Assembly: GCA_024275095.1 (NCBI GenBank)
Contig: JAJRZV010000024.1
Span: 1-51,192 of the forward strand
Direction of reading: 5' to 3'
Source of the DNA: a bacterium
Lineage (GTDB): Bacteria; JAJRZV01
Length of the DNA stretch: 51,192 nt
The translations under genes and the position numbers were made by a program. Within the stretch, counting starts at the first letter, position 1; each line of letters opens with the position of its first letter. Positions 1 through 16,241 of the stretch are shown here, piece by piece. Below the pieces are notes generated by a model. That model was not told the origin of the DNA. It did no database searches and was given only the letters and a program-made list of their open reading frames with translations.

Positions 1-450
1 GGTTCCACAGTACTTTACTGTGGATGTTGCAGCGCGGCCTCCGTTTTGGTCCATTTGAATTTAATCCAGAAAGTGCACGGACGTTTTTGATCCACTTACG
101 AGCCCTCTCCCGACTACCGCTGATTACTGAGAATTTTGCAAGGAAGTTTGGTCCTGAAAGTGAACTGGCTCCTAAGGAAAAAGACGTTAAGAAACTTTTC
201 AACCTATATAAAGTTGGTAAAGATACAGACTTTCAGGAACTTCTCTTCTCTGTCCACACTTATTTTGCCTTTTTAATGAAACTAATTACAGCAGAAATTC
301 TGACATTAAGAGAAAAATCTCTTAGTTCATCTCTTGCTCTTGAACTTGCTCATGCTTCTGATGAGGAACTTAAAAACCGCCTTGAAGACATTGAAAATAG
401 TGAATTTACGCACGTAAAGGAATTACGAATTCCTTAGAAGGTGACTTTCC
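1..450 (+). pseudogene. Remnant of an N6-DNA methylase / type IIG restriction-modification protein (internal fragment, frameshifted)
   Basis: Frame is open from the window edge and contains ELLFSVHTYFAFLMKLITAEIL. After a frameshift near 405 another frame continues YARKGITNSLEGDF, resembling the GIxNFLEGDFFxWY segment I recall from these proteins. Similarity stops at about 450. Confidence 0.65.
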
Positions 451-580
451 CTTGCATATTTGTCCAGCGACACTATTAACCTCTCTATCACCCCCCTTCC
501 TCAAGCTCCTGTAACCTACCCAACGTCGATATCACCCCCTGCTTCGTCTTCTTCCCCTCCCTCCTGTTCTCAACCAGCTG
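450..580 (-). mobile_element. IS1634-family transposase N-terminal remnant
   Basis: Hand translation of the minus strand gives QLVENRREGKKTKQGVISTLGRLQELEEGG, then after a 1-nt shift in a G6 run VIERLIVSLDKYA. This matches the recalled IS1634 N-terminal pattern (QLVExxRxxGKxxQRVIxxLGRxDEL). Not in the ORF track. Confidence 0.65.
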
Positions 581-702
581 ATTGCCAAACAAAAAGTAAA
601 TTAAAGTTGGCACCGCAAACCTTGAGACACAAAAACCTGACCCTCTATTTTTCAATTACTTGGCCAGGCGCTACGTTAATTTTGGTGAATTAACTGGAGA
701 AG

Positions 703-882
703 ATGGGCCAGGGCACAGCACCCATTGGCGAGGCAATTGAGACCAACGGCCAGGTGAAAGAAATTACCAATTGCTACGTATGTGATGCTGCGTTTATACC
801 CGAAGCTCTGGACAGGCCGATGGTTCTTACCATCATGGCGTTTGCGAAAAAAGTAGCAAGAGAACTATTGAATCCGGGTTAA
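703..882 (+). pseudogene. C-terminal fragment (59 aa) of a GMC-family oxidoreductase
   Basis: Hand translation: MGQGTAPIGEAIETNGQVKEITNCYVCDAAFIPEALDRPMVLTIMAFAKKVARELLNPG*. It matches the GMC C-terminal pattern GT..IG...NLYVxDAS..P....P.LTI.A.A. No N-terminal FAD domain upstream. Confidence 0.7.
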
Positions 883-893
883 GGTTTTATGTG

Positions 894-1259
894 TTACTCT
901 TCTCTCTCTTCCTCGAGTTTTTTAACAAAGTTTTTTATACGGCTGACTTTTCGTGGCGTGAGATCGAGAAAGCGAATACCCATGCCCGGCATTTGAGACC
1001 GATGTCTGACCTCTTCAGGTCTGACCATCCATCGAACCTCACCTTTAAGGTTAAGGGGTACCTTCTGACCCGGAATATAAAATCGAAGATTAACAATTGT
1101 GCCGGTGTCCAGGGGTTTGGTAGTATGGATAAACATTCCACCATGAGAAATATTTTTTGCAAAATCAGCCGAAAACTTGTCACCTGTGGAATATTCGACC
1201 TTTAACTCAACGGTGTAACGTTTGTGTTTGCGCCTTTCTCTGGTTTTTTGTGCCACCAT
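894..1259 (-). CDS. Stand-alone PilZ domain protein (TIGR02266-like)
   Basis: RxxxR motif (ERRKHKR), (D/N)xSxxG motif (NISHGG), GEVRW and GMGIRF; GGAG upstream of the ATG. Confidence 0.9.
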   Translation of the reverse strand: MVAQKTRERRKHKRYTVELKVEYSTGDKFSADFAKNISHGGMFIHTTKPLDTGTIVNLRFYIPGQKVPLNLKGEVRWMVRPEEVRHRSQMPGMGIRFLDLTPRKVSRIKNFVKKLEEEREE

Positions 1260-1560
1260 TGTTTACTCCTTTGGATCTGGATTTTTGCAGGTCTTTATAA
1301 CACCGATCGAGAAACACTGAAAGAATCTTACTGTACGTTTCTCGATCGATCTTGTTCGTGGCTGAGTTCTTAAACCTTTTCGAAAGAAGTGTGAATATTT
1401 CGGCGTAGACACTTTTTCTCGCCGCGTTCACATTCGACAGGTTGCTTAAACATTCTCCCAGAGATTGAAGTTTCAATTTTACTTTTTCACTGGATCCAAA
1501 ATTTTCCTTTTCCCCGGAAATACCAGCAAGAGGAAGAAATGCGAGAGTTATCAGGAGGCC
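1207..1560 (-). CDS. Hypothetical small exported protein, start uncertain
   Basis: Open frame fills the gap between the TonB-like and PilZ genes, with a hydrophobic stretch (LLITLAFLPLAG) and two Cys. No canonical start close to the upstream stop, and it overlaps the PilZ gene by 53 nt. Confidence 0.4.
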   Translation of the reverse strand, partial: GLLITLAFLPLAGISGEKENFGSSEKVKLKLQSLGECLSNLSNVNAARKSVYAEIFTLLSKRFKNSATNKIDRETYSKILSVFLDRCYKDLQKSRSKGVNNGGTKNQRKAQTQTLHR

Positions 1561-2516
1561 ACAGTAAATACAATAGGATAACTGACGGTTACCTCTCCTC
1601 CCTCTTTTGGAGGCGGGAAGCGAAGCCTCCTGATAACTCTCAACACGCATCCTTCAACCTCCTCGTTATTCAGGGTAGAACTTTCTATGGAGTATTTGGT
1701 GACTCTTCCTTTTGCGTTAATAGTAAATTTGACAACTACTTTTCCGTGAAGTTGCGGATTCTTTTTAAGTACCTTTTCATAACAGTATTTAATCATGCCC
1801 ATGCGTCTCATAATTGTTTGACGAATACTGTTGGCATCAAGAAATCCTGTGATTTTGGGTCCCTCTGTTCGTATCCTGCTGGCAACTTTCACGTTTTCTT
1901 TCCCACCAAGCCCTACCGAGCCACCTTCCGTAGCCTTGAGCTCACCGATACCCACACCACCTCCGCCTGTGCCACCAGCTCTTGCCACGCCCAGCTCCTT
2001 AGCAGAACGTGCAAGTTTAACTCCGGCCACCTGCCTCATTGCCTCGTCCAGATCCTTGGCAAAACCAGCACCTTTTGAAAGAATATCAGCAAGAGCGCCC
2101 CCGCCTTTTCGCTTACTTGTAATCAATGCGAGAAGACCTTTCGTCCTCACCTTTTGACGTATCATTTCACGGCGTTTGGCCTCATCAATACTTGTACCCT
2201 TGCCTCCAGTACCTTCCTCGTCAGTTTTACCGGGGCCCGCTTTTTCACCCTCCTCTCCAGTACCCTCCTGTGCCTGAGTTTCCTCCTTTTGAGCCACTGT
2301 CGTAGCAGCCGGCGTTTTCTGCTCTTCTACCAGTTTGGGAGCGATAATTTTTATAAACCGCTTGGGTATAAACCGCTGTATTTCCTCAATGGACTCGAAT
2401 TTGGGAATCTTCACATGATAAAGGTAAAAAATAACAGCATTGTGCACGACAAACGAAATAACAAGAACAATAGCAAAAATCATATCTGTTCGCCTGTCTT
2501 TAATACTCGAATTCAT
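1551..2516 (-). CDS. TonB-like / AgmX-PglI C-terminal domain protein (GltG-like)
   Basis: N-terminal TM helix with His (SFVVHN), Gly/charged linker, GLLALI segment, and C-terminal IKYCYEKVLKKNPQLHGKVVVKFTI...C...FPPPKEGGEVTVSYPIVF. Confidence 0.88.
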   Translation of the reverse strand: MNSSIKDRRTDMIFAIVLVISFVVHNAVIFYLYHVKIPKFESIEEIQRFIPKRFIKIIAPKLVEEQKTPAATTVAQKEETQAQEGTGEEGEKAGPGKTDEEGTGGKGTSIDEAKRREMIRQKVRTKGLLALITSKRKGGGALADILSKGAGFAKDLDEAMRQVAGVKLARSAKELGVARAGGTGGGGVGIGELKATEGGSVGLGGKENVKVASRIRTEGPKITGFLDANSIRQTIMRRMGMIKYCYEKVLKKNPQLHGKVVVKFTINAKGRVTKYSIESSTLNNEEVEGCVLRVIRRLRFPPPKEGGEVTVSYPIVFTVAS

Positions 2517-3019
2517 GACTCTTTCCCTTTTCCCTTTTCTTCCTTGTATGTGGCAAACTTGAACAGCGCGAACTCTGCTTGACCGGCAGTGTACATAATT
2601 TTCTTCAGAAGTAAGAACGGCATCCCCTTGTCTGCAATGAGTGTGAGTTTACCTTCAAACTCTTCCCCTCTGAGTCGAGCAAAATATTTCTGTTTCTCGG
2701 CTTCCTTGGTGAGGGCCTCATACAGACCTGGAATAAGGAACTCCTCTTCTTTCATGTTCTCGACATTCCAATTGTTTAGCTTCGCAATGACTTTATCGCC
2801 ATACACAATTTTGTCCTTAGTCACGATAATAGAAGCAGTCACCTCGGGTGTTCGATCAGAAGAGGAAACCGGTAAGGTAAGGTTGGGCATATTCACATTG
2901 AGCTCTGGCTGGGTAGAAAAACTTTTAAGCAAAAACACAAGAAGAATCGTGAGCATATCCACCATGGAATTGAGCATAAGGGACATGACAGGCTGAAGCC
3001 TTTTCTTTCTTCTTGCCAT
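2513..3019 (-). CDS. exbD: ExbD/TolR family motor subunit (AglS-like)
   Basis: TM segment LNSMVDMLTILLVFLLKSFS with the conserved Asp; C-terminal IADKGMPF..LKKIMYTAGQAEF. Confidence 0.9.
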   Translation of the reverse strand: MARRKKRLQPVMSLMLNSMVDMLTILLVFLLKSFSTQPELNVNMPNLTLPVSSSDRTPEVTASIIVTKDKIVYGDKVIAKLNNWNVENMKEEEFLIPGLYEALTKEAEKQKYFARLRGEEFEGKLTLIADKGMPFLLLKKIMYTAGQAEFALFKFATYKEEKGKGKES

Positions 3020-3046
3020 TTTTATTTACACTCCACAAACATTTTC

Positions 3047-3598
3047 TTATTGCACACTCGCCCCTAAGGAAATGTTGGGATGAAGTACCACCTTTTTCTT
3101 CTGCCCGTTCTCCACCACATACTTCACCGAGCTAAAATTTTTATCTATCGTATCCATTGTGCTCACAATAAGCTGGTAATCAATACTATCTTCAGCCACT
3201 ACTATGACATCATTTTCATCAGGATACTTGGCCTTAATCTTCTTAAGTATGCTCGCGAGCTTGTCAAAATCGTAAGTGCCATCAGGTGCTCGAGGCACCG
3301 TTGTTTTCTTGCCTCTCTCAGCGATAACCCCACCAGCCCCACCCACGTAAAATCCCTCGTCAGTAATTGCAATGGTGAGGTTAAGTCGCGGCTTTTCTTC
3401 TTCCTTTTTCACTTCTTCCTGAGATGCATCTCCCACAGCAGGCAACGTGGTGTCGAGCACTGAAATCTGGACAAACACTGCCGCAAGAAGCATAAAAGGT
3501 ATGAGAGCAAGAAAAAGATTCATCACTGGCACAATGTGCAACTCCGTGTCACCAGAGAGTTTGCGTTTAATTCTCTGTGACGGTTTTACGTAAGGCAA
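3047..3598 (-). CDS. exbD: ExbD/TolR family motor subunit (AglQ-like); Asn at the conserved Asp position
   Basis: TM segment ELHIVPVMNLFLALIPFML; periplasmic IVVAEDSIDYQLIVSTMD; lies directly after the exbB-like gene. Confidence 0.88.
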   Translation of the reverse strand: MPYVKPSQRIKRKLSGDTELHIVPVMNLFLALIPFMLLAAVFVQISVLDTTLPAVGDASQEEVKKEEEKPRLNLTIAITDEGFYVGGAGGVIAERGKKTTVPRAPDGTYDFDKLASILKKIKAKYPDENDVIVVAEDSIDYQLIVSTMDTIDKNFSSVKYVVENGQKKKVVLHPNISLGASVQ

Positions 3599-3601
3599 GG
3601 T

Positions 3602-4330
3602 TCACACCTTTACTGTTACTTTCGTGGTCTCTTCTTCTTTGATAGAAGAAAGCAGCCGCAGGAGTTTAAACGAATACTCATCGATGTCATCGGTTAATTT
3701 GGTGGTTTTACCTACAAGAATGGAGTAAATAAACATGGTCGGGATTGCCACTATCAGACCAAATGCGGTGGTGTTCATAGCGACCGCGATCCCCTTGGCA
3801 AGGAGGAGCTGTTTTTCACTGGGAGATGCGTGAGCCAGAGCATTAAAGGCCTGAATCAACCCAATAATTGTACCAAGGAGTCCCAACAGTGTTGCCACGT
3901 TAGCAGTCATTTGGAGGTAGTGGGTTCGTTTCTGAATGTCAGGAACCACTTCCAGAACTGCCTGGTCAATTGCATTCTGAATTTCATAGTCAGGTTTATC
4001 CGCCACTTCAAGTGCAGCTTTAAAAACCTTTGCCAGGGCGCTCTTGCCGTATTTTTCACATATCTTCATCGCACTTGCAACCTTCCCCTTCCGAAGTGTC
4101 TGCTGAATACTGCCCCAGAATTTCTCGGCATTCACGGAATAGATACCGTAAAGTACTATTGCTCGCTCAATAATAATGGCCAGTGCAAAGACTGACATAA
4201 GAGCAATAGGATACATGAACGGTCCGCCCTGCTGGAAAAATTCCGCAATTCGATAAAACATGTGTTGCCCCCGCGATATATCCGCCTGGTTCTGCGCGGC
4301 CATTGCGGCAATGAGAATAATGGAGTGCAT
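3602..4330 (-). CDS. exbB: MotA/TolQ/ExbB proton-channel protein (AglR-like)
   Basis: GGPFMYPI, ATLLGLLGTIIGLIQAF, LAKGIAVAMNTTAFGLIVAIP; GGAGG RBS with GTG/ATG start region. Confidence 0.93.
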   Translation of the reverse strand: MHSIILIAAMAAQNQADISRGQHMFYRIAEFFQQGGPFMYPIALMSVFALAIIIERAIVLYGIYSVNAEKFWGSIQQTLRKGKVASAMKICEKYGKSALAKVFKAALEVADKPDYEIQNAIDQAVLEVVPDIQKRTHYLQMTANVATLLGLLGTIIGLIQAFNALAHASPSEKQLLLAKGIAVAMNTTAFGLIVAIPTMFIYSILVGKTTKLTDDIDEYSFKLLRLLSSIKEEETTKVTVKV

Positions 4331-4341
4331 CTTTCAACCTC

Positions 4342-4665
4342 CTATTTCAGGTTATTATCCGTTACGGCCAGGATTATCCTGTCAACAAATTTCTTATTTT
4401 TTGCATTCTCTTCCAGTATACGAGCTTTGGTGGAACGCTGAAGAATAATCATGGCTTCAGGTTTTTGTATCTTGCCTCGAATCACCATTTCTTCCAAGCG
4501 GATTACCTTGGCGCGTTTCTTCTTGGGTTTAGCTTTGGCATACGAGTCAAGCGGCTGCAATGCAAATAAAATGCCCAGAGCGCATCCTGCAGCAACCAGA
4601 AATTTACCCAAGTTAAGGCCTCGCCCCCTCATTCCCTTCTCCCGTCTTCTTTTCCCCAGAGACAT
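4342..4665 (-). CDS. Small exported protein, GltF/CglF-like (alternative start at 4632)
   Basis: Signal peptide followed by VIRLEEMVIRGKIQKPEAMIILQRS...FVDRII; sits between the TPR lipoprotein and the motor genes, as gltF follows gltE. Confidence 0.7.
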   Translation of the reverse strand: MSLGKRRREKGMRGRGLNLGKFLVAAGCALGILFALQPLDSYAKAKPKKKRAKVIRLEEMVIRGKIQKPEAMIILQRSTKARILEENAKNKKFVDRIILAVTDNNLK

Positions 4666-5797
4666 CCCCTCGGGGAGGCTGTTCCACCGCCTCCTTAGGT
4701 TTCATTTTAGCAGAGGTCATCTTTTCAAGCAATTCTATGCGCTTCTGCACTTCCTTGAGGTGTTCCGGTGGCGCATCTTTTCCGAGTAATTCTGCGTACT
4801 GCTTCAAATATTCAAGAGCCAGTTTCGGTTTGCCAAGATAATCCTGATAAAGATTGGCTAAGTTGTACAAAGCAGGCTTTCGGTCCTTCAGATACCTTAA
4901 AGCTGTCTTATATTCTTTTTCTGCTTCTTCCAGCAGCCCTTTCTTTCGCATGATGATACCCCTCAGCAGGTGACCCTCCCCCCCTCGTGGACGTGCACGT
5001 ACAGCCTTTGCAATATGCTCTTCTGCATCGTCCATACGGCCAAGCTTCAATTCCAAACGTGCCAGATTAACAAGAGCCTGATAATAATTCTTTTTCAATG
5101 AGATGGCCGTTTTAAACTCATCCACAGCATCTGCCAAATAACCCAAGCGCTCGTAAATAAGGCCCAGTAAATTATGAGCTATATAATTTTTGGGAAAACG
5201 GCTGGTTAATTCTCTGAGTATGTAAATACCCATTTTATCCTTGCCGCTTTCATAATAAGCAAATCCAAGGGTTAAAAGAGCACTTTCAATGTTTCCATAT
5301 TTACGAATTACAAAAAGGCTCTCTCTGATTGCATCATCATAATCACCTCTTAATCGCAAAAGAATCGCCCTGTTGACCCGCGGGACCGGATTATCCGGTG
5401 CCATTATAAGAGCCTGATTAAGAGCACTGAGCGAATCATCCAGACGCCCGAGCTTTTTGTAACAAGCTGCTAAATTAATCCAGGCTTCTACAAATCCGGG
5501 TTCTTTTTCGATGGCTTTCCGGTAGAGAGCGATGGCCTCCTTATACTTTCGCAATTTTCGTTTCTTGTTGGCCAAATTAAACAGCCCTACCGGATCCGTA
5601 GGAATTAATTCTTTTTCTTCCTCTATCGCTTTGGCTGCAAGTCCCTCTTCACGCTCCTCTTCACCAAGCTTCTTTACATTTTCAAGTACGCGCGGTTTGG
5701 CCTCGGGAACCTTTTTTACACATCCAGCACTCACCGAAAAAACAACCAGCAATATCGTGCTCAAAAATTTATATGATGTCTTCTTCCTGAGCTTCAT
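4613..5797 (-). CDS. TPR-repeat lipoprotein (GltE/AglT-like)
   Basis: Lipobox VSAGC and multiple TPRs (EAWINLAACY, AHNLLGLIY, ALYNLANLY); follows the GltD-like gene with a 4-nt overlap. Confidence 0.85.
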   Translation of the reverse strand: MKLRKKTSYKFLSTILLVVFSVSAGCVKKVPEAKPRVLENVKKLGEEEREEGLAAKAIEEEKELIPTDPVGLFNLANKKRKLRKYKEAIALYRKAIEKEPGFVEAWINLAACYKKLGRLDDSLSALNQALIMAPDNPVPRVNRAILLRLRGDYDDAIRESLFVIRKYGNIESALLTLGFAYYESGKDKMGIYILRELTSRFPKNYIAHNLLGLIYERLGYLADAVDEFKTAISLKKNYYQALVNLARLELKLGRMDDAEEHIAKAVRARPRGGEGHLLRGIIMRKKGLLEEAEKEYKTALRYLKDRKPALYNLANLYQDYLGKPKLALEYLKQYAELLGKDAPPEHLKEVQKRIELLEKMTSAKMKPKEAVEQPPRGDVSGEKKTGEGNEGARP

Positions 5798-8700
5798 TTG
5801 ATTACAGGGCGCATGATGTAAAAATCTTTACGAAACTTTTCCAGTGTCTGCAGGGGCGACTTATGAAAAAAGCGATCGAGTTTTCCACTAAGGAGAAACT
5901 GAGAAACCCGGCTTTTTTCTTTAACCGCCACTCTCAAACGACTGAACGTTGTCTTTTCCGGAGTGGTATCTCCGTATACGTAAAAGAAATCGTCAATGGC
6001 AAATGCCATCTTTTCGTCAGCCCGTTTCATTTCGTAACCCGGCTGCAGTTCCTGTAAAAGCAATCTGGACTTATAAACCCATTCGTTCTCGATCCCCAGC
6101 TTCTCCGCATACTCAATCGCTCGCTTCACAGCCTCGGTAGCCTTGTCCTCAATGGGAAAAGCCTGTGCTTCAAGCTCCTGTCTGTAGATATCTTCCTCTT
6201 CAGGAGTCAAACCCGGAGGTACGGGCGCATCATAAAGCGCCTCTGCAAAATCTTTATACGCTCGTGCAATAAGGTAAAGCGCGCCTTCCGCCCAGTAAGC
6301 GTCACCATATTGTGGTATGTTCACAAGCTCTTCGGTAAGTTTCTTCAACATTTCCGCTTTCTTTTCAAGAAGTCGCTTCATCCTCTTCATGGGAAGTTTA
6401 AGTTTGATGGCATCATATTCCTCGTACATTCTGTAGAGAATGTTAAAATGAGCTGCAGCAGCTATTTCCGCGTATCTCTTTTTATCATCGGAAGAGAGTT
6501 TGGTGAATGTCTTTAATACTTCTGTATAATACTTTTTCGCCTTTTTCCATTCATTTTGAGTCTTAAAATAATTGGCTATCCACAACTGGGCTTTTATTAC
6601 GTTGACATAATCGGTGGGGAACCTTTTAATGTATCCAAAGTAAATATCAAGAGCTTCTTTTTTCGAGTCCATCTTTTCAAAACACTCTGCCATACTTAGA
6701 AGAAACTCCCGAACCTTTTCATCCTTAGGGAACCGCTTGATGTATTCTCGATAAAACATTACCGCCTGTGAATAATGCCCGAGATCATGATTAATCTTTG
6801 CCGCATTGTAAAGAGAATACTTGCTCTCCTTCGCCCGTGGAAAACGTTGATATACCTGGGTGTAATACTTCAAAGCACTTTCAAAATCAAACACCCTGTC
6901 GTAAAGAGAAGCCAGCTTGAACAGTACCTTTACAGTAAGCTCTGATTTTGGGTACTTCTCTGCAAATTCCTCCAGCACGTTGATCGCTTCTGAATAATCA
7001 CCCTTACCTTCGTAAGAGACAGCTATGTTAAAAAGAGCCTTTTCCGAAAGGTCAGTTCCTGCAAAACGAGCAATCACCCGTTTGAACAGCGAAATGGCTT
7101 CGTCATATTTCGCCTCTTCCATTCTCTTCATTGCTGCTTTGAACAGGGAACCTCCCACAATACCCGTGATATATTCCTTAATCTCTGGCGTGAGTATTTC
7201 CGGTCGTGCTAAAAATTCAAACCCTGTTTTGTAAAGATTATCATAATCGGAAAGATCTACATATATTTTGATAATATTTTTAACCGCGTCATCTGTTAAG
7301 GTAGTGTTAAAATAGTTATCTACAATTATACGAAACAGGGAAATGGCATCACGTGGATCACCGTGCTTCATCAATAAATATCCTGCTCTGTAAATAATAG
7401 CTGGAGTTCTGGGATCAAATGGAAATAAATCCATATACCATTTTGCATAAGAAGCATATATCTTTATGAGTTGTTTTATTTCTTTTTTCGACATATCGCT
7501 GCGTTCCTGAAAAATCGAATCAAGAGAATAAATAGCATTGTAGGCAGCCTGTTGAATATATTTGTTCTCAATGCCGGGGATATTTATCTCAGCAGCTTTT
7601 TTATAACTATCAGATGCTTTCAGATAGTAGTGTTGTGTAAATAGTATTTCTCCTTTAAGAAAATACGCATCAGATATGTAATAACTCCGAGGAAAATACT
7701 TGATCAATGTATTGTAATAATAAAGTGCTTTTTCATAAAAAGGCTCTGCCTTTTCATCTGATCTCTTTTCGGCTTCTGAATGATAATACTTGGCCAGTTC
7801 AATAATCGTTTCTTCAACATTTTTAAGAATTGAAGCGCGCTTCTTTTTGCCTATCTTTGCACGGGAATACCAATCAGCGTCAGGGAGAAAGGTTTTTATG
7901 AACTTATCCTTCCATTCAAGCATTTTTTCAAGCTGGTTTTGTTCAGAGTAATAATCAGAGATTTTCCTGTAGACTTCCGGTACAAGGTCGGAATATGCAT
8001 ATCTATTAAGAAAATAAAAAAGAACCTCAAGGGCCTTCTGTACATCACCCCTTTCGTGATAAATGTCCGAAATTTTCAAAACAATTTCACGTGCAAATTT
8101 GGGACCCATCCGCTCTGCAAGAAATTTTTCCGCATCTTCCACACTTGTCTTTTCCGCGAGACTTACAGCAAGGTATTCTTTGGATTCCTGTAACAATGAA
8201 GTTTCTGATTTATGTGTTTCGAAGTATTTAATAGACTTCAGGAAATATCGCACTGCATTGTCATAATCTTCCATCTTGTAATAAGACCATGCAAGTTTGT
8301 ACAGGGCCTTGTCATAAAACGGGCTTTGAGGGTGAGCTTCGATGAGGCTGTAATAAGCCACAGCGTTTTCTAAATCGTTTTCATTAAAGTAGATTTCACC
8401 GGCACGAAATGCCGCCTCGTCATAAAGACGACTCATAAATCTCTCATCAGCAATTTGTTTGAAATATTTTAATGCTTCTTCGGGCACCTGCATTTCATAC
8501 CAGCAGTATCCCAGGAGATAAAGTACGATATCAGCATCTCTGTGTTCTGGATAAAGTTTTAAAAACTTCAAGTACAGATCAATAGACTTACTGTAATCCT
8601 TAAAAGGCGGCAGTTCATTCTCCTTGAGCTCGCCTCTTTCCAGTTTCTGTTGGTACTGGGCGACCTTGCGCTGGTATTCAATGCTCGCTTTCTCATAGTA

Positions 8701-9072
8701 AAGCTCCGCAAGGCGAAGAATAATATCAGGAGCTGATCGAGAATGTGGATACTTCTTTAAAAACGTTTCAAGTGTTTTTATAAGCTGATTGCGTTCCTCT
8801 TCTTCTTTTGCCGTTAATTGAGATAATATTCCCTGAAAGCGGCTCTCTATTTCACCTTTCTTTTGATATTTAAGGTCCTCGAGAAGTTTTGACGCCTCTT
8901 TCGCCTCCTTTTTCAGGTCCTCAACTGCAATTTCAGCGATCAAGCGTGACTTGATTTTCTCGGCGTAATACTGTTCTGGACTTAACTTATCTACCCCGGC
9001 CCAGCAAAAACCTGATTTGCCTGCGGACCAGATAATCAACAATGCAGTAACAATCACACGAACATCTCTCAT
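5794..9072 (-). CDS. Large periplasmic TPR protein (GltD/AgmU-like)
   Basis: 1092 aa with signal peptide, many TPRs (LRLAELYYE, ALYKLAWSYY), and C-terminal APVPPGLTPEEEDIYRQELEAQAFPIEDKA. Confidence 0.85.
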   Translation of the reverse strand: MRDVRVIVTALLIIWSAGKSGFCWAGVDKLSPEQYYAEKIKSRLIAEIAVEDLKKEAKEASKLLEDLKYQKKGEIESRFQGILSQLTAKEEEERNQLIKTLETFLKKYPHSRSAPDIILRLAELYYEKASIEYQRKVAQYQQKLERGELKENELPPFKDYSKSIDLYLKFLKLYPEHRDADIVLYLLGYCWYEMQVPEEALKYFKQIADERFMSRLYDEAAFRAGEIYFNENDLENAVAYYSLIEAHPQSPFYDKALYKLAWSYYKMEDYDNAVRYFLKSIKYFETHKSETSLLQESKEYLAVSLAEKTSVEDAEKFLAERMGPKFAREIVLKISDIYHERGDVQKALEVLFYFLNRYAYSDLVPEVYRKISDYYSEQNQLEKMLEWKDKFIKTFLPDADWYSRAKIGKKKRASILKNVEETIIELAKYYHSEAEKRSDEKAEPFYEKALYYYNTLIKYFPRSYYISDAYFLKGEILFTQHYYLKASDSYKKAAEINIPGIENKYIQQAAYNAIYSLDSIFQERSDMSKKEIKQLIKIYASYAKWYMDLFPFDPRTPAIIYRAGYLLMKHGDPRDAISLFRIIVDNYFNTTLTDDAVKNIIKIYVDLSDYDNLYKTGFEFLARPEILTPEIKEYITGIVGGSLFKAAMKRMEEAKYDEAISLFKRVIARFAGTDLSEKALFNIAVSYEGKGDYSEAINVLEEFAEKYPKSELTVKVLFKLASLYDRVFDFESALKYYTQVYQRFPRAKESKYSLYNAAKINHDLGHYSQAVMFYREYIKRFPKDEKVREFLLSMAECFEKMDSKKEALDIYFGYIKRFPTDYVNVIKAQLWIANYFKTQNEWKKAKKYYTEVLKTFTKLSSDDKKRYAEIAAAAHFNILYRMYEEYDAIKLKLPMKRMKRLLEKKAEMLKKLTEELVNIPQYGDAYWAEGALYLIARAYKDFAEALYDAPVPPGLTPEEEDIYRQELEAQAFPIEDKATEAVKRAIEYAEKLGIENEWVYKSRLLLQELQPGYEMKRADEKMAFAIDDFFYVYGDTTPEKTTFSRLRVAVKEKSRVSQFLLSGKLDRFFHKSPLQTLEKFRKDFYIMRPVIK

Positions 9073-11120
9073 TTGGCAGCCTCAACAGTCTTAACAAGTG
9101 TGTCCGATACTTCGACAAGATGCTGAAGAATTTCTGTTAAATTTTCTCCCTTTGTATCAATTGTTGTTGCAGTCTTTTCTATCTTTTTAATTGCTTTATT
9201 GACTTTTACTTCTTCTTCATGTTGCTTTTGTTCTATGCGTTCATATAACTTTCCTATTTTTTCGGAAAGTTGATTTTTCTTAGCCCACGAGACATCAGTA
9301 TAAGCAAGCTCCACGCGAGCAAGCTCGTTAATAATTTCGTTTCTCAACTCGCCAAGAGCGAGATAGTGAAAATATTTTTCGTCCTTTTTCAATTTCTCCA
9401 GCGCCGCCTGCGCATAAAGTCGAAGAGTTTTGACCCGGTTTTTAAGTTTTTCCGTCTTGAGAATTACAGAGGTGTTAAATACTTTCCACAGGTCAAGAAT
9501 CTCTCTTTTTATTTCGTCTATTTCGCTTAACATGCGGTCAATTTTCTTAATTCTTGGATCGGTTTTTATGTTATATTTGATAGAATATAAAGAAAGAATG
9601 TAATCCAGCCTGTTCATTGATTCATCCAATAAAGTACCAAGTTGCTGATATGTCTTTACAGCTTTATGAGCTATAGCAGCATAAATATTGTATTTGTTTA
9701 TAATTCTCGGATTTTCTCCCTGACGAAGCTGGTTTTCTAATTCTGAAATATGATCATAAATTTTCTTTATAAGCACTCTAAGTCTTCTGTCTATTGCCAG
9801 TAATTCTCTTCGATAATTTCTTAATCGTTCATAAATATTTCTCTCGGTATAGGTTGTCCTCTCCACGACAGGAGCGAGTTTCAATTCTAACAATCTTTCT
9901 CTGATAGAATCTGCATACCTGACCTTTTCCATAACATTCTTCTGAGCCATTGTATGTACCTTGTCCTCAAATGTAACGAGACTCGTAAAAAGCGCATCTA
10001 CTGAATAAAACATTTTCCTAATCTTTTGAAAAATCTCTTCGTACTCTCTAAGAGAAGGAGCATCGGACAAAATGTTTTCCAAGACTCTGGCCCTCTTGGG
10101 AAATGTACTGCGTATAATCTCAAACGAATAGGTATACTCCCATGTTCTCATTTTTTTTAAAGTCCGCGTAAGCAATTCGATATCCTGTTCATAACGTTCC
10201 AGCAAGCTCTTGAGATATAACCAGCCCTTAAGATACCCCTGCTGTTCTGAAATAATGTATCCTTTGAGAATATTGGCATCGAGCAAGGCGGCAGTATTTG
10301 ATGCTGTTCTTGAAATCGACTCTGTCATCTGCAAGGCTTCCTCTAAATTGCCCAGCTTGTATAGCATCCATGCACTCTCACTCCGCACAATATCTTTCAG
10401 TGAATCGGAAGTTACAGTAGCGTACACGGAAAGTGCTTCCGAAAACCTGCCCATATCGTTCAAGGCTCGAGCAATTTGAATAGAAGCAAGGTCTGCTATA
10501 TATTTGGATTTTGTAACTATTCGCGCCTGACTAAAATACTTTATAGCTTTATCGTAATCCTCCATTCCCGCATATGCAGCGCCGAGAACAAACAATACTT
10601 TACCGGTCTCCTCCCCTTCTTTTTTCAATTTTAAAAGAATTTTCACTGCCTCGTTAAAGCGGTTGTAAAGGACAAGTACTTTTGCTATTTCTATCAACAC
10701 ATCCAGTTCACCCCTTAGTGGTACCTTTACCTTTTTGTAAACTTTTAAACTTTCGTCATAGCGACCTTCCTTTGCAAAAATCGCGGAGAGTCTCATAAGT
10801 ATCCTGTCCCTGAGTGCCTGCTTCTTCGTAAATTTCAAAGCCCTTTTGAGAATCTTTTCGGCTTTCATGGAAATGCCGCTCAGGTCGTAAATCCAAGCCA
10901 TATAATATAAGCCACGAGCGTAATCCGGGCTCTTCTGGAAAACAGGGTCACTGTTCAACTTTTTGAGATACGGATAAAACCGCAGGTAATCACCTCGTTG
11001 GATGTGCGTCTCGATAGCGGACAAAAAACGGGTGTCCTTCCGAGAAGCCGCAATGCCTTTTTCACCCATTACAAGTACGGCTGCAATTAAAATAAAAACT
11101 TTCAGCCGTTGAAACGACAT
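9069..11120 (-). CDS. TPR + coiled-coil exported protein (possibly GltC-like)
   Basis: Signal peptide, TPRs in the N-terminal half, helical/coiled-coil C-terminal half; 4-nt overlap with the next gene. Confidence 0.75.
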   Translation of the reverse strand: MSFQRLKVFILIAAVLVMGEKGIAASRKDTRFLSAIETHIQRGDYLRFYPYLKKLNSDPVFQKSPDYARGLYYMAWIYDLSGISMKAEKILKRALKFTKKQALRDRILMRLSAIFAKEGRYDESLKVYKKVKVPLRGELDVLIEIAKVLVLYNRFNEAVKILLKLKKEGEETGKVLFVLGAAYAGMEDYDKAIKYFSQARIVTKSKYIADLASIQIARALNDMGRFSEALSVYATVTSDSLKDIVRSESAWMLYKLGNLEEALQMTESISRTASNTAALLDANILKGYIISEQQGYLKGWLYLKSLLERYEQDIELLTRTLKKMRTWEYTYSFEIIRSTFPKRARVLENILSDAPSLREYEEIFQKIRKMFYSVDALFTSLVTFEDKVHTMAQKNVMEKVRYADSIRERLLELKLAPVVERTTYTERNIYERLRNYRRELLAIDRRLRVLIKKIYDHISELENQLRQGENPRIINKYNIYAAIAHKAVKTYQQLGTLLDESMNRLDYILSLYSIKYNIKTDPRIKKIDRMLSEIDEIKREILDLWKVFNTSVILKTEKLKNRVKTLRLYAQAALEKLKKDEKYFHYLALGELRNEIINELARVELAYTDVSWAKKNQLSEKIGKLYERIEQKQHEEEVKVNKAIKKIEKTATTIDTKGENLTEILQHLVEVSDTLVKTVEAAK

Positions 11121-11123
11121 TGA

Positions 11124-11708
11124 CTATCGAACAGAAGGTAACGTTTTTTTTCGCTTTACCTGAAAGAGAATCACAGGATTGTCTTTTTGAAGTTGAAAAA
11201 TAATGTCCACATCACTTGTAAGACCCTTCTCCACCGATACAACCCTGTCACCATTAACGGTAACGTTTTTTTTCCTTCTGAATATCCCCTTCTTTCCGGT
11301 GACTTCAGCGATCACTTCTATCCGGAAATTCCCGGGAGCCACACTCTCGAGATAAATGTTCTTACCAACTGCGGGACTCTGGGATGAGTATACCTGATAC
11401 CCGTTGACAAAAACGTTGAGGGAACGGATCTTATACCCTTCAGGCATCTCACTCTTCACGTTAAGACTTAACATCGTTCCACTTTCTGTCCCCTTTTCAA
11501 ACATTTCATTGAGTAAAAGCAGCTGGCTTTTCATTTCGAGAATTTTCTCTTTAAGGTTTTCAATTTCCTTCTGAATCTTGTTCAACTCTTCGCGTATGGG
11601 ATCGGCCTTTGCACGACGCTGTGCCGAGTAAACCGGCATTGAAATACCACACACCAGTACAACCAGTAGCACATGCTTCATATTCATAGTCTGTTTTTGG
11701 GGCTTCAT
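11124..11708 (-). CDS. Exported coiled-coil + beta-sandwich protein, first gene of the operon
   Basis: Signal peptide, heptad region (LNKIQKEIENLKEKILEMKSQLLLL), beta-rich C-terminal domain; GGAGAGG RBS. Confidence 0.8.
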   Translation of the reverse strand: MKPQKQTMNMKHVLLVVLVCGISMPVYSAQRRAKADPIREELNKIQKEIENLKEKILEMKSQLLLLNEMFEKGTESGTMLSLNVKSEMPEGYKIRSLNVFVNGYQVYSSQSPAVGKNIYLESVAPGNFRIEVIAEVTGKKGIFRRKKNVTVNGDRVVSVEKGLTSDVDIIFQLQKDNPVILFQVKRKKTLPSVR

Positions 11709-11737
11709 TTCCCTCTCCTTGCCGAGATTTAAAATAA

Positions 11738-11764
11738 TTTATAGCATGGTAAGTCCTCAGTCAA
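11738..11764 (-). promoter_or_regulatory. Candidate sigma70 promoter of the Agl-Glt-like operon
   Basis: Minus strand extended -10 TGcTATAAA (11746-11738) and TTGACT at 11764-11759 (short 15-nt spacing); a second TTGACT at 11779-11774. Confidence 0.45.
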
Positions 11765-11828
11765 CGTTAATTAAGTCAAGATACTTTAACCTGTTGTATT
11801 GATTGTAGATTTTGCATTTCCACCCGCA

Positions 11829-12893
11829 TTATCCGCCAGGAGAGAGCATGGAGTTAAGATTTTTGAGTGTTTGGGTGGTTTCGCGAACCCATCGGTTTTC
11901 AATTCCGAACCTTGCGTAAAGTTCAAGATTCTTCTGATAGGCAAGTGCAGCCTTGTGGAGAAGAGGTGATATTTCCTTTTTCAACTCTTCAAGATACACT
12001 TCCTTCTCCTCCTGCGAAAGCCCTTCCGGCAGAGGACTGTTTAACATCAACGTGTACATTTCCCTGTACATGGTTCCGAGTTTATAAAGGGCGCGAGTGG
12101 CGATATTGTACCCTCCGGCAAATGATTTGAGATAATACTTTTGAGCCAGCAAAATCAGCTTGGCAAGATTTTCAAGTGACTCATGAGAAAGGGAGATTGG
12201 AAAAGTAGCGTTTTTTGAGAAATCTAAAAAATAACTTTCTCCTATTAAATGATAGGTCAGTCCTCGATAGTAATCAGCATCTGCGACCCTTTGCGTGTGT
12301 AAAAATCGAAGTACCTTCTGTAATTTCATTCTCGCTTCAACGGTGTGGCCTCTTACAAGTGCTATGCGCGATAGGTTGAGCTGATGCTGTACAAACAATG
12401 AGGGTTCGAGACGTGCCTCATCAACAGGCTCAAGAATCTTCTCTGCTTCCCTCCATTGTCTCTGTTCAAGATATGCAGAAGCAAAAAGTTCACGTGCATC
12501 TTCGCATATATCCGGGAAGCATAAATCCACAAGGTCTCTAAGGATTAAAATTGCATCATTGATACGGTCAAGATTAATGTAGCAGAGGGCCAGGTTGTAC
12601 ATTGCTGTTCTAATAAGTGGGAAATTGGTGGAAACACTTATAATGTCAGTGTAAAGTCTGGCGGCTTTTGAGAACTCATTGCGACTGTAGAGGATGTTTG
12701 CCTTTTCAAACAGGCTTTTTTCTGAATACTCCCGAAGCAGTTCACCATGATAAGCGAGAAATGTAGGTTTCAGCAAAAACACCTTTCGAGAAGGTGGTCG
12801 AACACCCGCACATGATGATAAATTGAGTTCGAGAAAAATGACGATGAGTACAAAGTAAATAAAGGAGGTGATGGAAATGGGCTTACCAGGCAT
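11829..12893 (-). CDS. TPR lipoprotein with a GltD-like C-terminal module
   Basis: Start placed at ATG 12893 rather than 13004. Hydrophobic stretch plus lipobox LSSC, TPRs, and C-terminal [26 protein letters not shown]...GIENRWV. Confidence 0.78.
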
Positions 12894-13110
12894 ATGGGAA
12901 CTCCTCCTCATTCTGATTATTGTTCTTATTCTATTCGGTTCCAAGCGTTTGCCGGAACTGGGGGCAGGAATAGGTCGTGGAGTGAAAGCCTTCCGTAAAG
13001 CCATTCAGAGCAAAGACGAGCTTGACGTCACTCCACCTCAAAATGAGCAAAAGGTCACTTCTCACAACTCTCAATCCTCCAAATCTGAAAAAGAAGAAAC
13101 GACACATTGA
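12871..13110 (+). CDS. tatA: Twin-arginine translocase subunit TatA/E
   Basis: [38 protein letters not shown]; strong AAGGAGG RBS at about 12862; start is ATG 12871 or 12877. Confidence 0.95.
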
Positions 13111-13130
13111 AAATATTAGCTTTGATTTAT

Positions 13131-13883
13131 TCAAAGTGCCCGTCGTTTTTTAAGGATTTCAACCGCTGCTTTTTTAACCTCCTCATGCACATCGGACATT
13201 TCAGCAAGTTCCTTTAAATCCTGTTGAAGTAAAAAGTTGAGAATCGCAATAGCGATGTTGGTGGGGGTATAGGGATTAAAGGCCAGTGCCTTCTTCACCC
13301 TGTACCGTGAAAACCACTTTTCATTCTTAAAAATTTTCTCGAGAACCTTGGGGTTCGACGGTCGCCGTGAGGCAACCTTAAGAACAACCCGTTCGGTAGT
13401 TCGAGGATTTTTTAACAGGTTTTCAATTACCTCTGGAGAAAGGTCGTGTGCAAACTTATCGAGCTGATAAAATCCCCCGGTACGAGCTTTATACTTTTTT
13501 TCACCCAGTGTCATATACTCAAGCTCGGGAATAAAAGGATTATCACCATCACTGGCGGGAACTTCCTTGTTTTTATACCGCCTGAAAAGTCGCTCAACAT
13601 TGGTATATTCATTTTCAAGTGCGTAACTGTATATGGCGGCAATTCTATGATGTCCCATGTGCTGCACCAGCGACTCAACATCCATAAAACATGCGAGAAT
13701 GCGCTGAGAAGGTGTATCACCCCGGGAAGCTTTCGAAATAATGATATCCATTACAATGACCACTTCTTCCGCTGTTCTTTCAGAAAAGGCCTCGGCGATT
13801 TTGAGTGTCAGAGCCTCCCGAGAAGAAAAAATATCTGCCAAGCGCAAAAGTGACTTTGCAAGTGCTTGTGTATCCTTCATCAA
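13131..13883 (-). CDS. Hypothetical helical-repeat protein
   Basis: 250 aa ORF with repeated LLxNP/LAFNP motifs (LLKNPRTTE, ALAFNPYTP); 4-nt overlap with the upstream gene. Confidence 0.75.
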   Translation of the reverse strand: MMKDTQALAKSLLRLADIFSSREALTLKIAEAFSERTAEEVVIVMDIIISKASRGDTPSQRILACFMDVESLVQHMGHHRIAAIYSYALENEYTNVERLFRRYKNKEVPASDGDNPFIPELEYMTLGEKKYKARTGGFYQLDKFAHDLSPEVIENLLKNPRTTERVVLKVASRRPSNPKVLEKIFKNEKWFSRYRVKKALAFNPYTPTNIAIAILNFLLQQDLKELAEMSDVHEEVKKAAVEILKKRRAL

Positions 13884-15376
13884 AAAGACCGCGAAAATCG
13901 GAACTTAAAATTACTTTCAGAATCAATATTGAAAAATACGGCGTATATATCTCGTTGAGAACCTGTGTCGGTAGCAGGTTGAGAAAGCCGCGCTTCAATT
14001 TCAAAGGGTGTAAGGTGCACGAGTTCTTCAGGTGTCAATTTGTTTCCTGGATAAACCAGATGCGACTCGACGAGTCGGCCTCTTTCATCAACCGCCTCAA
14101 CCTTCACGGGAACGGGTTGCCTTAACGGCTTTCTCAATTGTGCCTTTACAAGAATCATATGTTTCTGAGACGCACCAGAGAAAATTTTAAAAAACTTTAC
14201 TTCTGCAATTTCGATCATTGCTTCCGTACGTTGAGGTCCTACCAGGACATTTACAAATGCACGGGTAAAATCAGCTCCTGAACGCCACGCTCCTACACCC
14301 AGTAAAACGAATATTGCAATCACAAGTGCGGAGGTGAAGACATACACTCCGCGCCTTCTTTCACGTAACATAGCAGCTTTCTGTCGCCGTCTTTCTATAA
14401 GTGAAATTTCAGCAACCCGTTTTTTGACTGTGTCAGATTCTTTTATGTCAAGAACAGTTGCTTCTTCTGCAGCAGTTTCAGATGATGCATCTCCTACTTC
14501 CATCAGTGTTGAAGTGGTTATATCCTGAAGAGACTGGACATTAAGTACGTTCAAATCAATCGACGGCGAGGAGGTGGTCTCTACTTCGAACGTGGAGTCC
14601 GTAACTTCACCCCCACCTGAAGTTTCGTCAGTGCTGAGGGGGATACTTTCACCGTCAGGTCCTTCTATTCCAGATCCCAGATCAAAGTCTGATGTAATCA
14701 ACTCCTTTTCTTTTTCAGGACTTTCGGGCATTTCTCCTGATGCTTCTGGTACAGAGGTGTCAAAGTCTTCCGTGGATAAAAATCCTGAATCTTCTACGTT
14801 GCTCTCTTCAGGCGAAATAATATCTTCTATAGAAGGAACGTCTGCACTCAGTGTATCCGACTCGGAAGAAACCTCATCACCCCCGGCATCAAGAGAAAAG
14901 TCTGAAGAAATCATATCTTCAGCGGGAACATCCTCTCCAGAGGAGGTTGATTCAGGTTCCACTTCCTCACCCAGGGATGCATCTTCAACGGCAAAAGACT
15001 CAAAACCGGTCAGGTCAAATTGATCTTCTGAAGTTTCGGTAGTTCCTGCCGTAGAAGGTTCAGGTGTGGCACGATCTTCCTGGCCAAATGAAAAATCAAA
15101 AGATGACTCTTGTTCCTCCTGTGAAGCGCTGTCAAGATTCAAATTACTGAGGATTTCGTCTATCTGTTTGGAAAGATCCTCTTCTCCGGGTGCTTTCTGT
15201 TGTGACTGGGGAGGGGTGGGCTCCTTTGGTACAGGTTCTTTTGCAGGTTCATCACCGGGACGATACACCCGGAAGGAATGTTTACATTTAGAGCACCTGA
15301 CTTTTACTCCTCCTGGGGGGACCTTTTCATCACTGAGTTTAAACTTTGCGTTACACTTTTCACACACAACAATCAT
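13880..15376 (-). CDS. Zinc-ribbon (MJ0042-type) membrane protein with long acidic linker, one TM helix and a C-terminal periplasmic domain
   Basis: MIVVCEKCNAKFKL...VKVRCSKCKHSF, a long D/E/S-rich region, a basic patch, then TM VYVFTSALVIAIFVLLGVGAW. Confidence 0.88.
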   Translation of the reverse strand: MIVVCEKCNAKFKLSDEKVPPGGVKVRCSKCKHSFRVYRPGDEPAKEPVPKEPTPPQSQQKAPGEEDLSKQIDEILSNLNLDSASQEEQESSFDFSFGQEDRATPEPSTAGTTETSEDQFDLTGFESFAVEDASLGEEVEPESTSSGEDVPAEDMISSDFSLDAGGDEVSSESDTLSADVPSIEDIISPEESNVEDSGFLSTEDFDTSVPEASGEMPESPEKEKELITSDFDLGSGIEGPDGESIPLSTDETSGGGEVTDSTFEVETTSSPSIDLNVLNVQSLQDITTSTLMEVGDASSETAAEEATVLDIKESDTVKKRVAEISLIERRRQKAAMLRERRRGVYVFTSALVIAIFVLLGVGAWRSGADFTRAFVNVLVGPQRTEAMIEIAEVKFFKIFSGASQKHMILVKAQLRKPLRQPVPVKVEAVDERGRLVESHLVYPGNKLTPEELVHLTPFEIEARLSQPATDTGSQRDIYAVFFNIDSESNFKFRFSRSF

Positions 15377-16227: not shown

Positions 16228-16241
16228 AACGTGCGGTTTAC

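Follow-up and report, generated by a model that had tools for sequence, protein, structure and literature searches.

The Agl-Glt gliding machinery and the Agl-Nfs machinery, which moves spore-coat polymer, are proton-driven envelope systems whose genes are split over several loci. The published AlphaFold model (AglR5-AglQ-AglS with GltG-GltD-GltE-GltC-GltF) places an AglQ-AglS heterodimer inside an AglR pentamer and has GltF bridge GltC to GltG and GltD. A two-hybrid interaction between AglR and GltG has been published for Myxococcus xanthus, the AglQ D28N substitution abolishes motor function, and a model of cyclic contacts has been published for Tol, Exb and Agl. According to Luciano 2011 (PMC3169522), the M. 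xanthus gliding clusters are G1, G2 and M1, G3 is nfs, G5 and M2 are further paralogue clusters, and G4 comprises MXAN_1919-1923, including a 1111-residue gltD homologue (MXAN_1922) and a 447-residue protein (MXAN_1919). The same paper describes a 'core complex': in Gammaproteobacteria, Geobacter, Fibrobacter and one betaproteobacterium, the genes gltC, gltD, gltE, gltG, aglR, aglQ and aglS lie together in one region and may form an operon. The function of this complex is given there as unknown, and the complex was judged unlikely to drive motility alone. Wartel 2013 (PMC3858216) called this core complex a stand-alone 'basal transport machinery'. Here we describe a related locus in a 51,192-nucleotide stretch of bacterial DNA (lineage JAJRZV01; assembly GCA_024275095.1, contig JAJRZV010000024.1, positions 1 to 51,192), which as a whole we call the window. 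Nine close-packed co-directional genes run on its minus strand from 11708 to 1551, as called from open reading frames (ORFs). They probably encode a G4-type member of the Agl-Glt/Nfs family, that is, a Tol-like envelope machine driven by the proton-motive force, with its motor in the operon and with polysaccharide or envelope-cargo handling, rather than gliding, as its likely job. In gene order they are:

11124-11708, minus strand: coiled-coil/beta-sandwich protein, 194 residues, without a Pfam or NCBIfam family
9069-11120, minus strand: TPR protein at the GltC position, 683 residues, called from TPR families and position
5794-9072, minus strand: GltD-like large TPR protein, 1092 residues, called from TPR families and homologues
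4613-5797, minus strand: GltE-like TPR lipoprotein, 394 residues, with TPR families and a sub-threshold NCBIfam GltE match
4342-4665, minus strand: small exported protein at the GltF position, 107 residues (96 from the second Met), without a family
3602-4330, minus strand: AglR/TolQ/ExbB-like proton-channel subunit, 242 residues, MotA_ExbB at 3.6e-28
3047-3598, minus strand: ExbD/TolR-like subunit 1, 183 residues, ExbD at 9.9e-14
2513-3019, minus strand: ExbD/TolR-like subunit 2, 168 residues, ExbD at 4.6e-10
1551-2516, minus strand: GltG-like TonB/TolA-type transducer, 321 residues, with TonB_C, the GltG model and an AgmX/PglI tail

From gene 1 to gene 9 the spacings are 3, -4, -4, -53, 11, 3, 27 and -4 nucleotides. 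Codon log-odds scores, with 20 genes of the window as training set, were 0.21-0.30 in frame and negative out of frame for eight of the nine core genes; the 107-residue gene, which stood outside the training set, scored 0.20. The nine-gene order is not a chance arrangement, because the same order recurs in nine of 80 related public loci, and the locus is a real, well-preserved operon. A scan for promoters and terminators was uninformative (32 and 20 sites, versus 28 and 17 in shuffled sequence), and Rfam gave no match across the whole window. The seven genes that make up the core complex (gltC, D, E, G, aglR and two of aglQ/S type) are all present and contiguous, gltC being the weakest call. 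The contiguous compact form has been in print since 2011 and is common in public genomes. A sequence-only reading of this DNA had stated that compact versions of unknown function exist, in agreement with Luciano 2011 (PMC3169522). That reading's list of domains (three TPR proteins, MotA_ExbB, two ExbD, TonB_C and PilZ) was recovered with Pfam and NCBIfam. Its contiguous operon of 10-11 genes holds for the nine tightly spaced ones; the PilZ gene lies 291 nucleotides beyond gltG, and a 147-residue ORF between them is doubtful.

A profile scan with one genome per species gave 579 relatives, of which the best 80 loci were kept for all locus counts reported here; counts for the window proteins come from phmmer queries against every ORF in the 80. 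GltD had a match in 80/80, GltE in 67, GltG in 56, the GltF-position protein in 55 and the coiled-coil protein in 39, while the GltC-like protein (weakly) and ExbB each matched in 22 and each ExbD in 20. The exact order coiled-coil, C, D, E, F, ExbB, ExbD, ExbD, G was found in nine loci (L003, L005, L009, L013, L018, L041, L051, L063 and L072), a D-to-G order with motor in 12, and a motor-less order coiled-coil, C, D, E, F, G in 18. Two genes that the earlier reading had taken for lineage-specific extra subunits, those for the coiled-coil and the small exported protein, thus recur widely (39/80 and 55/80); only the PilZ gene and the doubtful ORF are local (0/80). In a FastTree phylogeny of 80 GltD-like proteins (all trees here are unrooted), the window protein pairs with P0002, and the two fall in a seven-member clade with an unplaced metagenome-assembled genome (MAG) and a Dadabacteria locus, outside a 68-member Myxococcota clade. 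The window GltD groups with G4-type proteins in a sample that is free of M. xanthus G1, G3, G5, M1 or M2 and of gammaproteobacterial sequences.

The motor subunits resemble those of Tol and Exb systems at a distance. Against NCBIfam equivalogs, the ExbB-like protein scored 65 bits for TolQ (cut-off 221) and 46 bits for ExbB (cut-off 206), and the TolR and TonB equivalogs reached 24.8 bits (cut-off 127) and 16.7 bits (cut-off 448). The ExbB-like protein shares 25.5% identity with E. coli TolQ and about 55% with numerous ExbB-like proteins 213-218 residues long, two of them on contigs equal in length to those of Bradymonadales loci L005 and L013, which carry Glt-like clusters; the nearest relative of the window shows 71% identity in ExbB and 48% in GltD. 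In a tree that contained E. coli TolQ and ExbB and no M. xanthus AglRQS sequences, these two E. coli proteins stand apart from a group (SH-aLRT 91) in which the window ExbB joins 28 ExbB-like proteins that are Glt-linked or closely related. Branching with TolQRA or ExbBD-TonB had been named beforehand as the pattern that would speak against an Agl-Glt-like identity, and in this tree ExbB does not branch there.

The two ExbD-like subunits show no BLAST similarity to each other and differ at the key membrane position. In the alignment column of E. coli TolR D23 and ExbD D25, subunit 1 carries Asn and subunit 2 carries Asp (residue 21). The same Asn/Asp split was found in 15 of the 20 loci with both ExbD paralogues; four had it reversed, with Asp in the first and Gly or Ala in the second, and one had Asp in both. 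Counted by subunit, the locus orthologues carry Asn in 15/20 for subunit 1 and Asp in 16/20 for subunit 2. One protonatable Asp per ExbD pair is therefore the rule (the window and 19/20 loci). Such a single-Asp pair fits the AglQ-AglS heterodimer model and the loss of function of AglQ D28N.

The transducer has a cytoplasmic tail of about 12 residues and a membrane helix that carries S21-x3-H25, followed by a Gly/charged linker and then a TonB-C-like tail. The NCBIfam GltG model NF033760 matched at 1e-43 and 149.9 bits (cut-off 650) over model positions 342-648 of 650, which cover the membrane and periplasmic part; the full-length equivalog, at more than 650 bits and with the cytoplasmic FHA region included, is not what the window encodes. 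Two models passed their cut-offs, the AgmX/PglI tail NF033768 with 113.5 bits (against 40) and TIGR01352, the TonB C-terminal domain, with 47 bits (against 27.1), so the protein has the single membrane helix and AgmX/PglI C-terminal domain that mark a core-complex GltG. The earlier claim of an Agl-Glt-type rather than a plain Ton or Tol system is borne out by the GltG model, by the AgmX/PglI tail above its cut-off and by the Tol, Exb and TonB equivalogs far below theirs. Ahead of the aligned block that bears the helix, the window GltG has seven residues and 53 of 54 relatives have 138-230. The gltG start already overlaps the stop of the ExbD gene before it, which leaves no room for an upstream extension of the ORF. 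Among the 54 relatives the helix motif is S..H in 25 and S..Q in 10, and S-x3-H is also found in E. coli TonB and TolA. When searched with Pfam, the N-terminal domain of the relatives' GltG gave FHA and YscD-cytoplasmic matches only, at E=0.11 and each in one of 14 members. We also considered whether the nearby PilZ protein could be a detached GltG cytoplasmic domain and rejected the idea, since an hhalign comparison between PilZ and the N-terminal domain of 14 relatives yielded a probability of 0.14%.

The remaining five proteins would form the periplasmic scaffold. The 1092-residue GltD-like protein, presumably its centre, has YbgF/CpoB-type TPR_6 repeats in five stretches and 372 homologues at E<=1e-3, the best at 48% identity and the next at 33%; full-length relatives of 1100-1200 residues occur in Myxococcota, Bradymonadia and Candidatus Dadabacteria. 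The 394-residue lipoprotein, in which a lipobox-like Cys, read by eye, closes the signal peptide, matched the NCBIfam GltE model NF033758 at 3.4e-19 over positions 95-390 of 411; its 69.1 bits stay below the equivalog cut-off of 225, and other TPR models score equally or higher. A GltE-like homologue follows gltD in 67/80 loci. The 107-residue protein has a strongly conserved central motif around IQKP (alignment of 48 sequences, the window and 47 others), and a homologue lies between gltE and gltG or exbB in 55/80 loci, the place that gltF occupies in G1. The 683-residue protein starts with a signal peptide, has TPR repeats in its N-terminal part and is helical over a long C-terminal half; it falls in the same length class as GltC (673 residues). 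With phmmer it weakly matched the gene that precedes gltD in 22/80 loci (1e-4 to 1e-10); with a Bradymonadia member as query the family upstream of gltD was found in 68/80, and the M. xanthus G4 counterpart matches NCBIfam GltC at 67 bits.

The 194-residue coiled-coil gene is the conserved first gene of G4-type Glt clusters, with a homologue just upstream of the GltC-like gene in 39/80 loci, and by position it is the counterpart of MXAN_1924. In Fig. S1 of Luciano 2011 (PMC3169522), MXAN_1924 is not among the listed G4 genes. The AlphaFold2 model of the protein (pLDDT 83.1) has a signal peptide, a long helix at 37-76 and an eight-strand beta-sandwich at 79-188. A fold search of the PDB returned generic Ig/transthyretin-like matches only (TM-score <=0.38), and look-alikes in the protein atlas are unnamed clusters in Myxococcota, Bdellovibrionota and Pseudomonadota. 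Its co-fold (residues 30-194) with the GltC-like protein (25-683), run without controls, gave scores of 0.16, 0.39 and 0.01 against a mark of 0.32.

Among the 80 loci are several from Myxococcus, with a D protein of 1111 residues (L054) and a 447-residue protein, as in G4. Downstream, a 204-residue OPX protein matches PDB 9N9A at 372 bits; this entry is M. xanthus WzaB (MXAN_1915), which lies beside WzpB (MXAN_1916). The two genes upstream are MglB and MglA, MglA being MXAN_1925. We identified these loci as G4 because of the 1111-residue D protein, the WzaB match downstream and mglB/mglA upstream.

The window and G4 share the order C-D-E-F-G with the coiled-coil/beta-sandwich gene ahead. The window proteins matched their G4 counterparts at 6e-80 for D (against the 1111-residue protein of L054, the length of MXAN_1922), about 1e-41 for G and 1e-6 to 1e-9 for F. 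NCBIfam Glt scores are sub-threshold in both, with 150 bits in the window versus 172 in G4 for G and 69 versus 102 for E. Two marks of the G4 type are present in the window, a coiled-coil gene upstream of C and a small IQKP-core protein between E and G; its typical flanks (mglBA on one side; small ORF, Wzp and class-3 Wza on the other) are not. G4 differs from the window in that its cluster holds no motor genes, its GltG carries a cytoplasmic domain of about 145 residues, and it is flanked by mglBA upstream and wzpB-wzaB downstream. In the window, by contrast, the motor genes stand between F and G, GltG is tail-less, a PilZ gene is present, and both flanks are missing. The motor-containing clusters of Bradymonadia and other Myxococcota MAGs are like the window in their nine-gene order, an ExbB at about 55% identity and the Asn/Asp ExbD split, but those nine clusters retain the GltG cytoplasmic domain, mostly with S-x3-Q, six of the nine run into Wzp-Wza, and none has PilZ.

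The core complex resembles the window in its contiguous motor and Glt genes in one probable operon (Luciano 2011, PMC3169522; Wartel 2013, PMC3858216). This comparison was made by description, none of the 80 loci being a gammaproteobacterial core complex. The window differs in having the coiled-coil gene and a gene at the gltF position, whereas Luciano 2011 limits gltF to Myxococcales and Bdellovibrio; the same paper mentions an 'additional gene' of the core complex without a Myxococcales homologue, whereas both extra genes of the window have one. With the Agl-Glt and Agl-Nfs machineries the window shares a homologous motor, a GltG-type transducer and a TPR scaffold, and by homology it is likened to them as a proton-driven system with an ExbD/TolR-type heterodimer, as in the published model. 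Unlike the window, these machineries have the GltA/B/H and NfsA/B/H barrels, GltK, CglB, GltI and GltJ. Tol-Pal and ExbBD-TonB are like the window in having a channel, a plug, an anchored transducer with TonB-C-like tail and S-x3-H, and a TPR partner; the window differs from them in scoring below every equivalog cut-off, in having no TolB, Pal or receptor, and in its two unlike ExbD paralogues in place of a homodimer.

Many relatives carry, downstream of gltG, a small ORF, a barrel of about 430 residues (Pfam BBP2_2) and a short Wza-type OPX protein. Where there was enough flank, gltG was followed downstream by the Wza-type gene in 17 of 27 loci that have no motor and in 11 of 16 that have one; over all 80 loci this gene occurs in 29, and mglA lies just upstream in 29. 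In the 51-kb window no outer-membrane counterpart was found. GltA/B/H/K-like proteins, CglB, GltI and a full GltJ were not detected there, the zinc ribbon of GltJ alone having a counterpart, and TonB-dependent receptor, TolA, TolB and Pal were not found among the scanned window ORFs (16 of 30 ORFs of at least 100 residues in 1-16300, 25 of 48 of at least 120 residues in 16000-51192, together with 14 others searched with Pfam; ORFs lying inside longer ones were left out). The sequence-only reading was therefore right that TonB-dependent receptor, TolB and Pal are absent from the locus among these ORFs. Its description of a complete trans-envelope machine has to be given up, because no outer-membrane partner, whether GltA/B/H/K-like, Wzp or Wza-like, is found in the 51 kb. 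The window holds a bare version, an inner-membrane motor and a periplasmic scaffold.

Further observations concern individual loci. In L023 (5405-19452), and also in L011, L037, L055, L066, L073, L080 and others, mglB-mglA, the G4 cluster, a small ORF, wzpB and wzaB follow one another on one strand, a neighbourhood seen in Myxococcaceae and Archangiaceae. We found no discussion of it in open full texts (closed supplements and a 2015 capsule/motility review were outside the scope). Among open full texts, MXAN_1918 to MXAN_1924 occur in Luciano 2011 only; MXAN_1922 is not mentioned in Islam 2020, 'Glt' is absent from a Nat Commun 2026 paper and from the Saidi 2022 OPX preprint (bioRxiv 10.1101/2022.02.11.480155), and in Schwabe 2022 it occurs three times, always as the gltB control strain. 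L043 and L065 each carry two Glt-like clusters in tandem on one contig, a motor-less D-E-G and then a full set with motor and Wza, and the D proteins of the two clusters fall in two distant clades. In L001 (7572-9808), the closest named locus to the window and part of the unplaced MAG, gltG directly follows ExbB with no ExbD between, and Wzp, Wza and Wzc lie downstream; the same MAG has a second, motor-less D-E pair (L002) that adjoins a GAF-GGDEF gene on the opposite strand. L055, labelled Comamonas sp., is Myxococcus-like throughout (MglA at 4e-127; its G4 D protein nested among Myxococcus species) and looks like a mislabelled or contaminated assembly.

Five further co-directional ORFs flank the operon, the first two beyond gltG and the other three upstream:

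1207-1650, minus strand: doubtful ORF, 147 residues, without a family
894-1259, minus strand: stand-alone PilZ protein, 121 residues, PilZ at 1.7e-16
11829-13004, minus strand: candidate TPR protein, 391 residues, with a BLASTP match to the GltD-like C-terminal domain
13131-13883, minus strand: candidate helical protein, 250 residues, without a Pfam or NCBIfam match
13880-15376, minus strand: candidate zinc-ribbon membrane protein, 498 residues, Zn_ribbon_4 at 2.7e-16

The PilZ protein scored 60.8 bits on PF07238 (cut-off 22.5) and 89.4 bits on TIGR02266 (cut-off 68.7). With RxxxR at residue 10 and NxSxxG at residue 36 it has the sequence marks of a cyclic di-GMP (c-di-GMP) receptor (RxxxR, D/NxSxxG), as predicted from its motifs. 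It is a possible regulator, linked to the operon by position, and we would guess, from this position and by analogy with YcgR, which acts on MotA of the flagellar stators, that it may place the motor under c-di-GMP control. The 147-residue ORF overlaps gltG by 100 nucleotides and PilZ by 53, and neither a Pfam or NCBIfam family nor a homologue in the 80 loci was found for it. Its non-overlapping part scores +0.15 in its own frame and negative in the other two; we regard it as doubtful because its G+C content is flat by codon position despite this frame score.

The three upstream genes (11829-15376) are candidates that may belong to the system. Residues 297-390 of the 391-residue TPR protein matched residues 923-1012 of the GltD-like protein by BLASTP (32% identity, E=2e-12), and a homologue occupies the same upstream position in Dadabacteria locus L017 (7e-20). 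Read by eye, it is probably a lipoprotein made from an internal start; its gene lies 120 nucleotides from the coiled-coil gene that follows. The start of the 250-residue gene overlaps the stop of the gene upstream by 4 nucleotides. Atlas look-alikes of its product (0.96-0.97) are unnamed clusters of about 250 residues, commonest in Myxococcota, and no homologue was found in the 80 loci. In the 498-residue protein an MJ0042-type zinc ribbon at the N-terminus is followed by an acidic linker, a single membrane helix and a C-terminal orphan domain. The zinc ribbon matched GltJ model positions 1-65 only (7e-12) and PDB 7zok_A, the AgmX zinc ribbon (8.3e-8). A search of 1.84 billion representatives with the C-terminal 179 residues yielded the protein itself and one 34-residue match only; the single-sequence model of this domain (pLDDT 62) is beta-rich and too poor to use.

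The sequence itself shows the components, the conservation of their order and the key residues. On homology with Tol, Ton and Agl, from which we infer the stoichiometry, contacts and cargo, the machine could work as follows. The ExbB/TolQ-like protein would form the inner-membrane channel, as the pentamer does in the published AglR model, and enclose the two ExbD/TolR-like proteins as a heterodimer in which one partner alone has the protonatable Asp. Proton flow would then cycle the conformation of GltG through its S-x3-H membrane helix. The GltG linker and TonB-C-like tail would engage the scaffold of GltD-, GltE- and GltC-like, GltF-position and coiled-coil/beta-sandwich proteins, which would pass the force to an outer-membrane partner encoded elsewhere. 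The task is most likely to move, to position or to help export surface polysaccharide or another cargo, not gliding. We lean, if only modestly, towards a role with surface polysaccharide or other envelope cargo because a WzpB-like barrel and a WzaB-like OPX protein usually follow gltG in relatives.

Several observations weigh against this assignment of a G4-type machine that handles envelope cargo. HMMs (hidden Markov models) of the three downstream families (small ORF, Wzp and Wza) gave nothing at E<=10 in the whole 51-kb window, and neither did MglA and MglB queries. The polysaccharide link is thus borrowed from relatives, because the window has no Wza, Wzp, mglA or mglB, and 15 of 43 relatives with enough flank also have no Wza-type gene. 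Functions of G4, G5 and M2 are given as unknown in Luciano 2011 (PMC3169522). That G4 is the closest Myxococcus paralogue follows from the loci among the best 80 of 579, not from a tree of all paralogues. The 683-residue protein has no NCBIfam GltC match at E<=0.01, its GltC call being one of position and weak E-values. The window GltG is without the cytoplasmic domain of about 140 residues held by 53 of 54 relatives, so that its coupling to the cytoplasm may differ or be lost, and the PilZ gene has no homologue in the 80 related loci.

The main competitor is a divergent Tol-Pal- or Ton-like system that tethers or constricts the outer membrane or energises import, with the large TPR protein acting as CpoB/YbgF on a TolA-like protein. 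The parts do mirror TolQ-TolR-TolA with a CpoB-like TPR protein: on the YbgF model (cut-off 90.1) the GltD-like protein reaches 151.6 bits, its relatives are annotated 'TolA-binding protein', and GltG matches the TonB C-terminal domain model and has the S-x3-H anchor of TonB and TolA. However, that YbgF score stems from the five TPR_6 stretches of a 1092-residue protein, not from a CpoB-sized one, and TolQ, TolR, ExbB and TonB equivalog scores are far under their cut-offs. With ExbB apart from E. coli TolQ and ExbB in the tree, a specific GltG tail domain, Glt-type synteny, and no TolB, Pal or TonB-dependent receptor found in the window, we consider a Tol- or Ton-like system unlikely. Even lower stands the view that the locus is a working gliding motor and moves the cell over surfaces as a compact Agl-Glt focal-adhesion machine. 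This would explain the family membership and the GltJ-like zinc ribbon protein upstream, but none of GltA, B, H, K, I, CglB, MglA and MglB was found in the window, and the closest Myxococcus paralogue is G4, not G1. According to Luciano 2011 (PMC3169522), the core genes are insufficient for motility, and gliding is normal in polar mutants of the gltD homologues in G4 and G5. The window GltG also has no cytoplasmic domain, whereas the FHA domains of M. xanthus GltG are modelled as docking on the GltI cytoplasmic scaffold. We therefore judge gliding very improbable.

The truncation of GltG relative to 53/54 relatives could instead reflect decay, the locus being a reduced G4-type remnant with little activity, deprived of its cytoplasmic input and of its outer-membrane partners. 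The absence of Wzp/Wza and mglBA nearby and a gene fragment adjoining the locus, the C-terminus of a GMC oxidoreductase (703-882), would suit such a remnant. But none of the nine core ORFs is broken, their coding scores are normal (0.20-0.30), functional residues are kept (Asp in one ExbD, S-x3-H, the PilZ motifs), and identities of 71% in ExbB and 48% in GltD to the nearest relative fit purifying selection, which makes decay the least probable of these explanations. A bolder form of the G4-type assignment, which we offer as a speculation with rather little chance of being right, would make G4-type machines proton-driven periplasmic partners of class-3 OPX/Wzp polysaccharide translocons, wired to the MglA/MglB polarity switch in Myxococcaceae. 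The window would then hold a minimal form, from an unplaced, deep-branching lineage, that has dropped the FHA-like input and is gated by c-di-GMP through PilZ, possibly together with the zinc-ribbon protein.

Elsewhere in the window, the 59-residue ORF at 703-882 (plus strand) matches the last 50 positions only of the GMC oxidoreductase C-terminal domain (2.7e-7) and is probably a gene fragment; beside it, ORFs 3-437 and 460-693 have no family. A glycan-related run at 24768-35607 (plus strand) comprises DUF4855, GH94-like, DUF2961, a CehA/McbA-type metallohydrolase with CarboxypepD_reg, and GH15-like genes, with a TRAP solute-binding protein ahead of it (23662-24675). A 1102-residue protein with PKD-like and YVTN beta-propeller repeats (35730-39038, minus strand) is unrelated to the operon. 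From 41 to 51 kb lie genes for heterodisulfide-reductase-like Fe-S proteins, AFOR-like and B12 radical SAM proteins, a gene content that suggests an anaerobe. ArgH (22138-23547, minus strand) has one relative at 58% identity and the rest at <=51% across several phyla; judged by such similarities, the host lineage is very poorly sampled.

To the compact Agl-Glt core, in print since 2011, this locus adds a pared-down representative from a lineage of which hardly any relatives have been sequenced, a parts list of nine conserved genes that includes the coiled-coil/beta-sandwich protein omitted from the 2011 cluster lists, and an ExbD pair that is asymmetric, one member alone bearing a protonatable Asp. 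The by-products outweigh the locus itself: the single-Asp ExbD pair, the coiled-coil gene absent from the published list, and the neighbourhood in which G4 is framed by mglBA and wzpB/wzaB. Since G4 lies between mglBA and wzpB-wzaB in many Myxococcota, a link between motor and polysaccharide export is directly testable in M. xanthus.

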